DNA of 19,147 nucleotides. Origin: a virus. The notes below the pieces were generated by a model. The model was not told the origin of the DNA. It ran no database searches and was given only the letters and a program-made list of their open reading frames with translations. Below, in pieces: positions 1,008-5,093 of the stretch; the first letter of the stretch is position 1, and each line of letters starts with the position of its first letter. Where the stretch lies: the UHGV virus genome UHGV-0126495; one strand, given 5' to 3'. The position numbers were made by a program, and so were the translations under genes.

Positions 1008-1261
1008 ACAACCAGACAACACCTTTTACCCCTGAACAATTACGTAAACAGGCACAGGAAATGTTGCGACAGGCGGAACAACTGGAAAAAACAGGTGTAA
1101 CAAAAGATGCCATTCGTCGGGATATGGTGCCAGCGCTCAGGGAACTGATGCAGGCGAAACACCGCGCACAAAAAGCGGTGGATGAGCTGGTGGATTGTGT
1201 GGCAGAGCTGGAAACCAGAGTTGGAAAGTTTGAAAAACTGGTGCAGGAGGTGCTGCGCTGA
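1004..1261 (+). CDS. hypothetical small coiled-coil protein (85 aa)
   Basis: ORF with TTG start at 1004 overlapping the helicase stop; GGAG at 992-995 about 8 nt upstream. Stop overlaps the next ATG at 1261. Charged, helical sequence with no recognised family. Confidence 0.45.
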
Positions 1262-1644
1262 TGCGTGATATTCAGATGGTTCTTGAGCGTTGGGGGGCAT
1301 GGGTGGCAAATAATCATGAGGATGTCACCTGGTCATCGATTGCAGCCGGATTCAAGGGACTTATTCCTTCAAAGGTTAAATCGCGACCGCAATGTAGTGA
1401 TGATGACGCAATGGTTATTTGTGGGTGTATGGCTCGTTTGAAAAAGAACAACAGTGATTTGCATGATTTGCTGGTAGATTATTATGTGGCTGGTATGACG
1501 TTTATGGCACTGGCCCGTAAGCATCATTGTTCTGATGGATATATAGGAAAAAAACTTCAGAAGGCTGAAGGAATAGTCGACGGAATGTTGATGGCACTGG
1601 ATGTTCGTCTCGAGATGGATCTTGAAGTTGTTAGATGTTATTGA
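1261..1644 (+). CDS. quuD: late-gene antitermination protein Q (phage 82 / QuuD type)
   Basis: 127-aa ORF starting [14 protein letters not shown]..., recalled as near-identical to the DLP12 QuuD antiterminator; conserved Cys-rich block [16 protein letters not shown]. Sits immediately upstream of a promoter/terminator region as in lambdoid phages. Confidence 0.8.
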
Positions 1645-1781: not shown

Positions 1782-1822
1782 ATGTTGTGGGAGATAAATA
1801 TCTCCCACAACATATCTTTTTT
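1782..1822 (+). terminator. strong intrinsic terminator (tR'-like) downstream of Q
   Basis: Perfect 13-bp inverted repeat ATGTTGTGGGAGA / TCTCCCACAACAT (1782-1794 and 1801-1813) with 6-nt loop, followed on the plus strand by ATC then TTTTTT (1817-1822). Confidence 0.6.
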
Positions 1823-1833
1823 AATAAAAAGAT

Positions 1834-2931
1834 TTAGAACTGGTAAACCATACCGACAGCAACAATATCGTCGGTGTTTATACCAAGACCTCTGGTGAAA
1901 TCATTTTTGTCAAGCAGGTTGATTTTGTAATCAACGAAAGTAGACATATTTTTGTTGAAGTAATAGGTTGCGCCTACATCAACATATTTAACTAAGTCTT
2001 GATCGCCCCATACTCCGAGATCTTTACCTTTAGATTGCAGGTAAGCCACGGACGGACGCAGCCCAAAATCGAACTGATATTGTGCAACAGCCTCAACGTT
2101 CTGAGCTTTATTAGCGACGAAGCGATCAGCAAATACCGTCATATTCTGGGTTTCAGAATAGGTAGTGGCCAAGTAAATGTTGTTAGCGTCATATTTCAGA
2201 CCAGCGGCCCAAACTTCTGCATTTTTACCGGAAGCAAATACTCCAGGAAGAACTTTCCCTAGATTAACTTGAGTGTCGGTACGGTCAGATTTCGCATAAG
2301 TTGCACCAATACCGAATCCTTCGTATTCATAGGTAGCAGAGAAACCGAAGCCATCACCGTTACCTTCGGTATAGTTATCGAGATCGCTACGATCGTTTTT
2401 GCCTTGGTACTGAGCAGCAAAGTTCAGACCATCAACCAGACCGAAGAAGTCGTTATTACGGTAAGTTGCAACACCAGTTGCACGCTGAGTCATGAATACG
2501 TCGGTTTGAGTCCAAGTATCACCACCGAATTCTGGCAGAACGTCAGTCCACGCACCGATGTCGTATGCTACACCGTAGTTACGGCCATAATCGATGGAGC
2601 CGTAGTCACCGAATTTCAGGCCAGCGAAGGCAAGACGGGTTTTATCTTTGGAAGAACCTTGAGATTCAGCACGGTTGCCTTTGAATTCATATTCCCACTG
2701 ACCGAAACCAGTCAGTTGATCATTGATTTGGGTTTCGCCTTTGAAGCCCAGACGAGCATAAGTTTTGTCACCATCGTGTTTATCGTTAGAGGAGAAGTAG
2801 TGCTTGGCATTAACTTTTCCGTACAGATCCAGTTTGTTGCTGTCTTTGTTATAAATCTCTGCTGCCTGAGCAGACATCGCCATTAATACTGACGCAGCTA
2901 CAGCAGAGATTGCCACTGTTAATTTTTTCAT
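1834..2931 (-). CDS. nmpC: outer membrane porin, OmpC/NmpC/Lc family (prophage-borne lysogenic conversion porin)
   Basis: 365-aa minus-strand ORF with signal peptide [23 protein letters not shown], mature N-terminus AEIYNKD and C-terminal ...VYQF typical of general porins; recalled as very close to E. coli NmpC / phage PA-2 Lc. AGGA 7 nt upstream of the ATG. Convergent with Q, as in DLP12. Confidence 0.9.
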
Positions 2932-3175
2932 CGTGAATCCTTAGTCCTTTTCGGAACTATTATTAAAAAATATTGTCACTGCGGCCTAAATATACATCTA
3001 ATCGGTATGGCTATTTCAAGATATGGAGTTTATTTAATGGTTCAAAGTGTGATCAAGATCTCGTTTATGCGTACTGGTAATTATTGATTGACGATGTTTT
3101 TGTAATGAGAGATGCGTTTCTGAAATGCAATGAAAAGTTATTGTTTTTGTATTTTATAATGTAAATTTTTTGCGT
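2932..3175 (-). promoter_or_regulatory. AT-rich porin upstream region with candidate sigma70 promoter and OmpR-box-like motifs
   Basis: Read on the minus strand: TTGAAA (plus coords 3014-3019), about 17 bp, then TGTATATTT, followed by a roughly 60-70 nt leader. Further upstream TTTACATTATAAAATAC and GAAACGCATCT resemble OmpR-binding boxes of ompC/ompF. Confidence 0.35.
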
Positions 3176-3180
3176 GCTGG

Positions 3181-3194
3181 TTTACGTACGTAAA
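3181..3194. promoter_or_regulatory. perfect 14-bp palindrome TTTACGTACGTAAA (candidate operator)
   Basis: Exact palindrome read directly; overlaps a possible -35 (TTTACG) with TATGAT at 3203-3208 sixteen bp downstream, upstream of the 3265 ORF. Confidence 0.3.
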
Positions 3195-3264
3195 AATTTA
3201 AATATGATGTTAAGAGTGGTCACTTTGCCACACAGCTTAAACCAGCCGCCAAACGGGGTTTTTT

Positions 3265-3573
3265 ATGCCCGAAAAGCGGCGCAGTACGTTAAACGCGCTG
3301 GTGGTTGCGAATACCGGTCTTTCAGCTTGCTGGCTTTTTCGACAAGAGTTATTGGTATGTCACGTTAACCGGAATAAGGGAAAAAGACATGCTAAAACAG
3401 CAGGATATGACCGAAACCGTAATGAATTAAGCGTCACCGAGCCGGCGACCGTCGGGGAAATTGCGCAGAATACGTACCTTTCACGCGAACGCTGTCAGTT
3501 AATACTGACCCAGCTTGTTATGGCGGGTCTGGCAGATTATCAGTTCGGTTGTTACAGACGCCTTCCTCAGTGA
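3265..3573 (+). CDS. hypothetical small DNA-binding protein (C-terminal helix-turn-helix-like segment)
   Basis: 102-codon ORF; C-terminal ATVGEIAQNTYLSRERCQLILTQLVMAGL looks like an HTH recognition unit. Bracketed by a candidate promoter/palindrome upstream and an intrinsic terminator overlapping its stop. N-terminal half is low-complexity, so the true start is uncertain. Confidence 0.35.
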   Translation: MPEKRRSTLNALVVANTGLSACWLFRQELLVCHVNRNKGKRHAKTAGYDRNRNELSVTEPATVGEIAQNTYLSRERCQLILTQLVMAGLADYQFGCYRRLPQ

Positions 3574-3587
3574 AGGCTTTTTTATTT
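3560..3587 (+). terminator. intrinsic terminator
   Basis: GCCTTC-ctcagt-GAAGGC hairpin (3560-3577) followed by TTTTTTATTT; overlaps the stop codon of the 3265..3573 ORF. Confidence 0.6.
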
Positions 3588-3723
3588 GTGGTAATGGGCG
3601 GCTGGTGGGTGTTAGCGGCACCTGCCAGCCATCTGCTCATGCGTTGGGGTCACAAGCAAACCTCAGGCCCATCTGCTTTGCGCAAAAGCGGAATGAGCCT
3701 ATCAGAGAAGTGCTTATTGATCT

Positions 3724-4770
3724 ATGGCCAATACTGTAAAAATATCCAGTTGTGAGTTAATCAACGCTGATTGCCTGGAATTTATCCAGACCTTACCGGA
3801 AAACTCTGTCGATCTGATAGTCACAGACCCGCCATATTTTAAAGTGAAGCCCGAGGGCTGGGATAACCAGTGGAAGGGCGACGATGATTATCTGAAATGG
3901 CTGGATCAGTGTCTGGCGCAATTCTGGCGGGTACTGAAGCCTGCCGGAAGTCTTTATCTGTTCTGTGGTCATCGCCTGGCATCTGACACCGAAATCATGA
4001 TGCGTGAACGCTTTAATGTGCTGAACCACATTATCTGGGCGAAGCCGTACGGACGCTGGAACGGGTGTAATAAGGAAAGTCTGCGGGCGTATTTTCCGGC
4101 AACAGAACGCATTCTGTTTGCTGAACATTATCAGGGGCCATACCAGCCCAAAAATGACGGCTATGCGGCAAAGGGGCGCGAGCTTAAGCAGCACGTCATG
4201 GCCCCGCTGATTTCTTACTTTCGTGATGCGCGTGAATCACTGGGAATAACGTCAAAACAGATAGCGGAAGCCACCGGAAAGAAAAACATGGCTTCGCACT
4301 GGTTTGGTATCAGTCAGTGGCAGTTGCCGAACGAAGGCGATTATCTGAAATTACAGGCGTTGTTTGCGCGTGTTGCAGCAGAAAAACATCAACGAGGGGA
4401 ACTGGAAAAGCCACACCACCAGCTGGTCAGCACATACAGTGAACTGAACCGGCAATATGCCAGTCTGCTGAAGGAGTACAAATCCCTGCGGCGTTATTTT
4501 TCCGTATCGGCTGCCGTTCCGTATACGGATGTCTGGACGCACAAGCCTGTGCAGTATTACCCCGGCAAACATCCCTGTGAGAAACCGGCGGATATGTTGC
4601 GTCAGATAATTACCGCCAGCAGCCATCCGGGAGATTTGGTCGCTGATTTTTTTATGGGGTCGGGGTCAACAATAAAAGCAGCATTATCGCTGGGAAGGCG
4701 TGCAATAGGTGTGGAACTGGAAGAAGATAGATTTAACCAGACTGTAATTGAAATAAAAAATAATCGTTAA
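3724..4770 (+). CDS. orphan DNA methyltransferase, beta-class amino-methyltransferase (probably N6-adenine; N4-cytosine not excluded)
   Basis: 348-aa ORF with motif IV DPPY at nt 3826-3837 near the N-terminus and motif I FFMGSGST at nt 4648-4671 near the C-terminus (IV before I is the beta-class permutation). No restriction endonuclease candidate nearby. Confidence 0.88.
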   Translation: MANTVKISSCELINADCLEFIQTLPENSVDLIVTDPPYFKVKPEGWDNQWKGDDDYLKWLDQCLAQFWRVLKPAGSLYLFCGHRLASDTEIMMRERFNVLNHIIWAKPYGRWNGCNKESLRAYFPATERILFAEHYQGPYQPKNDGYAAKGRELKQHVMAPLISYFRDARESLGITSKQIAEATGKKNMASHWFGISQWQLPNEGDYLKLQALFARVAAEKHQRGELEKPHHQLVSTYSELNRQYASLLKEYKSLRRYFSVSAAVPYTDVWTHKPVQYYPGKHPCEKPADMLRQIITASSHPGDLVADFFMGSGSTIKAALSLGRRAIGVELEEDRFNQTVIEIKNNR

Positions 4771-4939: not shown

Positions 4940-5015
<76 letters not shown>

Positions 5016-5018
5016 TAT

Positions 5019-5093
<75 letters not shown>

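Follow-up and report, generated by a model that had tools for sequence, protein, structure and literature searches.

The window (the entire stretch of DNA analyzed, 19,147 nt, from the virus genome UHGV-0126495) comprised the replication-to-late region of a lambdoid prophage. The first gene in order encoded a DnaB-like helicase, and was followed by the Q antiterminator, a porin on the opposite strand, the region at 3181–3587, an N6_N4 DNA methyltransferase, two tRNAs, holins, and an endolysin, with terminase, portal, capsid, and tail genes further downstream (Table 1). Lysis and morphogenesis genes were thus present downstream of the candidate late promoter, as in a Q late cassette. Identical gene order was annotated in Escherichia coli E94 and in phage phiP27, the latter carrying stx2e after the methyltransferase and tRNAs. 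The closest relatives were ETEC1738 (98.2% across the whole window) and E94 (96.8% across 2932–3723). Part of the region was found in 2,384 of 5,426 complete E. coli genomes, and late-region DNA of Stx2e, Stx2a, Stx2d, and Stx2k phages matched it as well. The Q protein was distantly matched to the phage 21 Q structures 6P18 and 6JNX (E 1.9e-9), and in related phages the site between Q and the promoter held different inserts or none.

Table 1. Features of the Q-to-methyltransferase region of the window, with coordinates, strand, and the evidence for each.
Feature	Position	Strand	Evidence
Q antiterminator gene, 127 aa, Q21/Q933W family	1261..1644	+	PF06530, E 5.8e-54
OmpC-like porin gene, an inserted extra gene ("moron") between Q and the promoter	1834..2931	-	Porin_1, E 2.5e-155
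Candidate late promoter pR', -35 TTTACG, 16-nt spacer, -10 TATGAT	3181..3208	+	Consensus scan; predicted start near 3215
14-bp dyad, halves TTTACGT and ACGTAAA, candidate Q-binding element (QBE)	3181..3194	.	Position and Q-cluster correspondence, 184 loci
Conserved initial transcribed region GTTAAGAGTGGTCACTTTGCCACACAGCTTAAACC, presumed pause and Q-loading region, with small 5' hairpin	3209..3243	+	Near-invariance across Q clusters
tR' position, hairpin and T6, degenerate in this lineage	3244..3264	+	Hairpin/T-run at the equivalent site in all promoter modules
Untranslated leader, first ~41 codons of the 102-codon ORF	3265..3388	+	Frame not kept among relatives
Frameshifted remnant of the 65-aa winged-helix gene, deletion junction 3419/3420	3389..3573	+	Alignment, phrog_331
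Hairpin enclosing the stop codon, then U-run	3560..3585	+	Folding; compensatory changes
Structured RNA in two domains, methyltransferase 5' UTR	3594..3722	+	Minimum free energy, covariation
Intact N6/N4 DNA methyltransferase gene, DPPY motif	3724..4770	+	PF01555, E 5e-44

A preliminary description had read positions 3181–3587 as a self-contained unit consisting of a palindrome over a promoter, a 102-codon ORF with a helix-turn-helix (HTH)-like C-terminus, and a terminator. Each of these elements exists, but together they do not make a single unit. Rather, a second hairpin with a T6 run lies inside the supposed unit, at the very point where homology to the late regions of other phages starts. 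From these sequence comparisons we consider it likely that the region forms the front end of the Q-dependent late operon of a phiP27/DLP12-like lambdoid prophage, and not an autonomous gene.

The sigma-70-like site that the palindrome was said to overlap was recovered (TTTACG-16 nt-TATGAT), in a consensus scan that returned seven sites in the region versus 7.3 in shuffled sequences, hence no excess. In all dyad classes the second and sixth positions of its -10 hexamer were kept as A and T, respectively. An alternative register is possible, in which the -10 would lie within the A-tract and the TAnnnT motif would be the pause element. No clear -10-like hexamer that could serve as a sigma-dependent pause element was seen at +1 to +15 of the predicted start; TAAGAG resembles the TAAGCTG of phage 21, yet is too close to the -10.

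The palindrome itself, TTTACGTACGTAAA, is a perfect 14-bp palindrome, as described. Taken alone it is not beyond chance, since about 1.3 perfect palindromes of at least 14 bp are expected per window of the same size and composition, and 73% of Markov shuffles contained one; its significance emerges only through comparison with related loci. These were gathered via Q and, independently of Q, via the conserved initial transcribed sequence, giving 184 loci with a Q gene, the Q proteins of which were clustered at 75% identity. A dyad was present at the same position in all 184, and its sequence followed the Q allele, such that five Q clusters and five dyads were matched one-to-one. Specifically, the cluster comprising the window and DLP12 type had TACG(T/A)(A/T)CGTA (141 loci), cluster 2 had GCGGTCCGC (22 loci), cluster 3 had GCGTACGC (17 loci), cluster 4 had TGTTATAACA (three loci), and the phiP27 Q cluster had GGAATTCC (one locus).

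The placement of the dyad was equally regular. Its center was always 21 nt upstream of GTTAAGAG, equivalent to about -27.5 from the predicted start, and remained there while the distance from Q to the promoter ranged from 59 to ~3000 nt. Among loci sharing one Q cluster, homology started at the 5' edge of the dyad. The Q proteins had the N-terminal third and the C-terminal tail in common and differed in a central HTH-like segment, and of the four alignment columns that distinguish the ACGT-ACGT from the ACGA-TCGT dyad class without exception, three were in this segment. Because the dyad class follows the Q cluster, the position is fixed, the HTH-like segment of Q varies, and the plan is similar to that of phage 21, the dyad is probably the QBE of the late promoter pR' and not an operator of the small protein encoded downstream. 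Q and the dyad are physically linked, and their association owes something to shared ancestry.

Two other readings of the palindrome were weighed against this one. It might be a chance or neutral feature that has no binding partner, arising for instance from the -35 sequence and the A-tract, and the expected number of palindromes is consistent with this, as is the derivation of part of the TTT...AAA flanks from the -35-like TTTACG and the conserved A-tract. However, six different dyads occupied exactly the same position, each confined to one Q cluster, which makes an accidental origin very improbable. The preliminary description favored a unit resembling the controller proteins of restriction-modification systems, in which a small HTH protein would bind the palindrome in its own promoter, autoregulate, and control the methyltransferase, as the remnant of such a system. 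The overlap of the palindrome with a promoter-like site and the tight linkage of a small HTH gene to a methyltransferase are as that model would have it. We nevertheless regard it as extremely improbable, and none of the three features that define such units (an Xre-type HTH_3 protein, a co-inherited operator, and an adjacent endonuclease) was found here. Across 80 viral contigs selected for an identical 65-aa version of the small protein, the upstream DNA belonged to six or more unrelated promoter modules, the majority of them free of any such palindrome, so that the two are not conserved as a unit. In the 184 loci, the palindrome varies with the upstream Q allele and not with the small protein. 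Moreover, the fold of the protein is a winged helix, the gene is set apart from the promoter by a terminator-like site and a leader of ~125 nt, and no endonuclease gene was found in the window, as the preliminary description had stated, or in 40 or more related loci examined. We therefore retain the QBE reading.

Downstream of the dyad, the initial transcribed region was nearly invariant across Q clusters that were only 42–62% identical to the window Q, and its 5' hairpin was maintained by a compensatory exchange (GUGG/CCAC to GUGA/UCAC) in two loci, L039 and L044. The window-type module can be written as the variable dyad, the A-tract, 6 nt, TAnnnT, GTTAAGAGTGGTyACTtCGCCACACAGCTTAAACC, a hairpin, and a T-run. 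All of the promoter modules upstream of the identical 65-aa protein ended in a hairpin and T-run at the equivalent of 3244–3264, where the shared downstream block begins. In the window this hairpin was weak and not significant (-5.6 kcal/mol, z -0.5), and it was likewise degenerate in E94; in phiP27, where the counterpart is strong, the fragment that contains it folds at -17.7 kcal/mol. The transcript predicted to run from about 3215 to this site would be ~50 nt long.

The terminator that had been described as overlapping the stop codon of the ORF was corroborated as a hairpin at 3560–3577 followed by T6 (-9.6 kcal/mol, z -2.3). It was conserved with compensatory changes in Enterobacteriaceae, had a clean U-run in some lineages only, and was absent in Proteus and Providencia. 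As the first terminator hairpin is degenerate in this lineage, the hairpin at the stop codon may be the effective terminator here.

The 102-codon ORF does exist, as an ATG-initiated frame at 3265–3573, but it is not a gene as read, being the by-product of a frameshift. E94 and phiP27 annotate a 65-aa protein in this place (MLKQQDMTETARVVFNELSV...YRRLPQ) with its start at the equivalent of window position 3389. Alignment with both showed that 13 nt (CCAGAGTGGTGTT) are missing from the window between 3419 and 3420, leaving the original frame from 3389 to stop after 13 codons, at 3428–3430, while a leader frame opening at ATG 3265, right after the T-run, continues into the last 49 codons. Judged from these alignments, the ORF is a chimera in which the deletion fused an untranslated leader frame to the end of a real gene. 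The suspicion that its N-terminal half was odd and that the true product is shorter was thus well founded, the conserved gene having 62–66 codons. This core ORF was intact in 88 of 90 unique contexts and evolved as a coding sequence, with changes between genera falling mainly in third codon positions (e.g., 7/5/27) and dN/dS of ~0.05–0.08. The exact deletion junction was absent from IMG/VR, from the GTDB representatives (one genome per species), and from 1,764 E. coli genomes covering the segment, and there was no full-identity match to it in complete E. coli genomes. By this comparison, the 13-nt deletion is private to this window, and the winged-helix gene is destroyed here.

The protein encoded by intact relatives was assigned to phrog_331 (E 1.4e-37; window ORF, E 1.5e-34). 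Its AlphaFold (AF2) model (pLDDT 73) showed a canonical winged helix with H1-H2-H3 plus a beta wing. The protein is thus a winged helix and not an Xre-type HTH. In the window the deletion cuts off the start codon and helix 1 from what follows, and an intact three-helix-plus-wing ORF is not present. Pfam hits were weak and included TrmB (PF01978), MarR_2, and HTH_24. Membership in the TrmB family was rejected, the score of 18 bits being under the curated cut-off of 25.6 bits, and the NCBI PGAP name for the phrog_331 protein, "TrmB family transcriptional regulator," overstates what is known. Searches of NCBIfam, PADLOC, and PDB sequences with the 65-aa protein returned nothing usable. Foldseek comparison to the PDB recovered only generic winged helices, among them IclR and MarR regulators, O-methyltransferase N-terminal domains, and SelB; since all of these matches were generic, with E above 1e-3, the fold gives no indication of function.

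Two further alternatives concern what the transcript yields. One is that the 102-codon ORF, or a ~106-aa long form, is a genuine longer protein, of which the window would encode a functional variant. In its favor, phrog_331 includes an N-terminal extension, to which the 102-aa ORF matched over positions 2–98, and forms of 106 aa were called in a number of contigs. An in-frame N-terminal extension of 41 codons was indeed present in 10 of the 90 unique contexts, leading to the ~106-aa products of some gene callers, but 66 of the 90 had no in-frame upstream ATG or extension, and other genera keep only the 62–66-aa core, with its own start and an AAGG-type ribosome-binding site. In close relatives, moreover, the extension frame was broken by 1–2-nt indels, the codon at its start was ATG, GTG, GCG, ATA, or GTA, and in Klebsiella the leader was mostly missing. 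Coupled with the replacement of helix 1 of the winged helix by the window fusion, and with the absence of the exact junction from the collections searched, these patterns render a longer functional protein highly unlikely. The other alternative, which is compatible with the late-operon reading, is that the main product of 3181–3264 in a lysogen is a trans-acting non-coding RNA of ~50 nt. The conservation of the initial transcribed sequence across Q clusters and the compensatory change in its 5' hairpin would fit such an RNA, and StxS offers a precedent of a pR'-tR' RNA that acts as an Hfq-binding small RNA (PMC7547250). However, the needs of Q loading and pausing explain the conservation equally well, the terminator is weak in the window, and the segment had no Rfam match; we consider this role unlikely, while giving it some weight.

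The small gene proved to be closely associated with the methyltransferase that follows it. Of 74 viral contigs anchored on the small gene, with contig ends excluded, 73 had the methyltransferase next, at a constant distance. Furthermore, of 42 loci drawn from Escherichia, Salmonella, Klebsiella, Kluyvera, Citrobacter, Enterobacter, Buttiauxella, Mangrovibacter, Mixta, Proteus, Providencia, and Plesiomonas, 40 had the small gene ~150 nt ahead of an N6_N4 methyltransferase, and the pairs were found behind Q genes of three different families. The functional tie suspected in the preliminary description is supported to this extent, by adjacency at a fixed spacing across Enterobacterales. An intact methyltransferase was not seen without the small gene, the matches of this kind being C-terminal fragments only. 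The methyltransferase of the window aligned with the E94 copy from end to end at 90% identity, and matched structures of the RsrI, MboIIA, and CcrM class. Because only C-terminal fragments otherwise occur without the small gene, the window is unusual in having, as the alignments indicate, a complete enzyme next to a defunct partner gene.

The 150-nt spacer between the two genes was conserved beyond synonymous sites and contained a predicted RNA structure with a minimum free energy of -61.4 kcal/mol (z -4.1). In its first domain, a helix (3594–3599/3635–3640) encloses hairpin P1 (3600–3630); in the second, a helix (3648–3657/3712–3722) surrounds a pair of inner hairpins and stops 1 nt short of the methyltransferase AUG. 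Over 36 distinct sequences, 95.6% of cells were paired, versus at most 45% in slid controls, and 10 pairs were changed on both sides, which was matched by none of 500 shuffles. The closing helix of domain 2, which is present in the minimum-free-energy fold, was 96% paired with three pairs changed on both sides, while P1 was rebuilt from different sequences in Proteus and Plesiomonas. An alternative helix (3635–3641/3651–3657), which would make the RNA a switch, was rejected, being only 71% paired. As G-U exchanges are frequent in the helices, an RNA is favored over a DNA operator. Searches of Rfam gave chance-level hits only, with no family covering the region at gathering or E-value thresholds. 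No Shine-Dalgarno sequence was evident where the closing helix meets the methyltransferase AUG, and this translation start is predicted from the covariation to be sequestered in a conserved RNA helix.

We propose the following course of events at the locus. RNA polymerase would start at pR', and Q would dock at the 14-bp dyad, which spans the -35 and the upstream part of the spacer, as the covariation suggests, then load onto polymerase within the conserved initial transcribed region. Without Q, termination would occur at the tR' position or at the stop-codon hairpin with its U-run; with Q, transcription would continue past both into the methyltransferase, tRNA, lysis, and morphogenesis genes. 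In relatives, the first late gene would be that of the 62–66-aa winged-helix protein, the conserved companion of the methyltransferase, and the structured RNA between the two would pair with sequence abutting the methyltransferase start codon. Where the winged-helix gene is intact, its product might act on the RNA to permit translation of the methyltransferase, in the manner of Com and Mom, or might be a partner subunit of the enzyme, in the manner of PNB-2. These roles we infer from synteny and analogy; with regard to the former, the fold also bears a generic likeness to winged helices that bind RNA, such as SelB.

Two elements of this scheme may be new. They are that Q proteins of the QuuD/P27 type would read a dyad-symmetric QBE, the 4-bp half-sites of which set allele specificity, and that the winged-helix gene, the ~130-nt RNA, and the methyltransferase would constitute a so far undescribed module that heads the late operons of phages across Enterobacterales. 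That both hold jointly is a tentative proposal from sequence comparison, quite possible but short of what we would call probable. If the module is real, the small protein would unmask the methyltransferase start by binding the RNA, or would be a subunit that gives the enzyme its specificity.

For annotation, the lesson is that an attractive 102-codon "HTH gene" was a frameshift artefact, and that the operator-like palindrome probably pertains to another protein, the gene for which lies 1.5 kb off on the far side of an inserted porin gene. In phiP27 the region is situated between Q and stx, within the transcript from which the toxin is presumed to be expressed, and the module of small protein, RNA, and methyltransferase probably has this placement in other Stx phages as well. 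The correspondence between Q alleles and their candidate docking sites, the second terminator, and the conserved RNA with its small-protein methyltransferase module would bear on the control of late genes and toxin.

Among characterized systems, the promoter region most resembles Q and pR' of phage 21 (Yin, Kaelber & Ebright 2019), for which promoter elements were taken from the annotated record OL657228. There, the plan consists of a -35, a QBE inside the promoter, a -10, the start, a pause element, and a terminator that ends 50 nt from the start (10.1101/651190; OL657228). The two share a Q of the same Pfam family (PF06530), a Q site (in the window a candidate one) within the late promoter, a transcript of ~50 nt (in the window predicted, and running to a weak terminator-like hairpin), and tRNA and lysis genes downstream. 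They differ in that the window Q has 127 aa and that of phage 21 has 162 aa, with only distant similarity, that a porin gene lies between Q and the promoter, and that a pause element was not recognized in the window. Moreover, the QBE of phage 21 consists of two direct 8-bp repeats between the -35 and -10, whereas the window has a dyad with variable 4-bp half-sites near -27.5. A dyad QBE is without precedent in this Q family, the phage 21 element being a direct repeat.

The StxS and lambda 6S RNAs are likewise short pR'-tR' transcripts, from a promoter described as constitutively active and terminated just downstream in lysogens (PMC7547250). The arrangement here is similar in having a candidate late promoter with a terminator-like site just downstream, and in many Stx phages the promoter is placed between Q and the toxin and late genes. 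In contrast to StxS, the Q type is different, the sequence is unrelated, and the predicted RNA has ~50 nt, while StxS has 258 nt and is processed to 74 nt. Controller proteins and their C-boxes share with the region a small HTH gene beside a methyltransferase and a palindrome in the promoter, but here the palindrome probably belongs to Q, the fold is that of a winged helix, and there is no endonuclease.

For the module formed by the small gene, the RNA, and the methyltransferase, the nearest parallels are of two kinds. In phage Mu, the zinc-finger protein Com binds RNA and unmasks the sequestered start of mom, the late DNA-modification gene directly downstream. Both arrangements have a small protein gene upstream of a late modification gene with its start in an RNA structure; unlike Com, the protein here, which may act likewise, is a winged helix, and the RNA is ~130 nt long with two domains. 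The second parallel is PNB-2, encoded with the methyltransferase M.EcoPA8orf6770P in Stx phage phiPA8. Homology to PNB-2 was rejected (BLASTP E 0.14), with an MT-A70 enzyme in phiPA8 as opposed to an N6_N4_Mtase in the window, and the PNB-2 pair sits in a different part of the phage genome. PNB-2 is a small winged-HTH gene located just upstream of, and co-transcribed with, its prophage methyltransferase, which its product binds 1:1, setting substrate preference (PMC10810198). The window module has the same layout, with a small winged-helix gene just upstream of a prophage methyltransferase.

The Q antiterminator proteins, compared between the window and the Q genes of related loci L001-L282, proved to be mosaics. 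Specifically, residues 1-55 and a LQKAEGxIDGxL tail were conserved, while the central HTH-like segment had been swapped between proteins. Members of Q cluster 4, one of the groups formed at 75% identity, had an N-terminus as in the window Q, with both the centre and the dyad of the late promoter being different.

Features of the window around Q, its late promoter and the methyltransferase gene.
Feature	Position	Strand	Remark
Q antiterminator gene	1261-1644		
Terminator-like hairpin, strong	1782-1813		14-bp stem; adjoins porin gene
OmpC-like porin gene	1834-2931	-	inserted between Q and Q's promoter
5′ hairpin of predicted late transcript	3216-3231		small
First late terminator hairpin	3244-3264		
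Structured RNA	3594-3722		methyltransferase 5′ UTR
Methyltransferase gene	3724-4770	+	
tRNA genes	4940-5093		Thr(TGT) and Gly(TCC)

The porin insertion site was occupied in relatives by a GIY-YIG nuclease (the Stx2e phage phiP27) or a KAP NTPase (Buttiauxella locus L289), or was empty. The tRNA cargo is exchangeable, since Ile and Arg tRNAs were present at the same place in phiP27 and in the E. coli relative E94.

Comparison across Enterobacterales revealed that the methyltransferase 5′ UTR has a conserved RNA structure of two domains, with multiple compensatory changes and a final helix adjoining the start codon; it matched no Rfam family. Four loci (L013, L179, L215 and L278) retained the upstream winged-helix gene and had lost the methyltransferase, and their recombination breakpoints fell within the structured RNA, after which different genes followed. 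The methyltransferase itself has an insertion of ~150 aa between catalytic motifs (residues ~115-265), which may be a target-recognition domain, and residues 167-189 had a faint HTH_3-like stretch (E 0.22).

The winged-helix ORF, frameshifted in the window, was truncated in two further loci, L235 and L317 (48 and 22 codons), and its loss is recurrent yet rare (2 of 90 unique contexts). Near-identical enterobacterial copies of the module also occurred in two genome bins, one named as a Bacillus sp. (L290) and the other as a Chryseobacterium sp. (L300), probably through contamination or mis-binning.

The predicted late transcript has a small 5′ hairpin, GUGG...CCAC, which was GUGA...UCAC in some relatives (L039 and L044), and this retention of pairing suggests that the initial transcript is under a structural constraint. 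Finally, the first late terminator hairpin was degenerate in the lineage to which the window and E94 belong (CCGCCAAACGGGG), which suggests that termination there is leaky and that the next gene is possibly transcribed constitutively; the phiP27 counterpart (L001, ~4050-4072) was perfect (CCCGCCGCCTGGCGGG).
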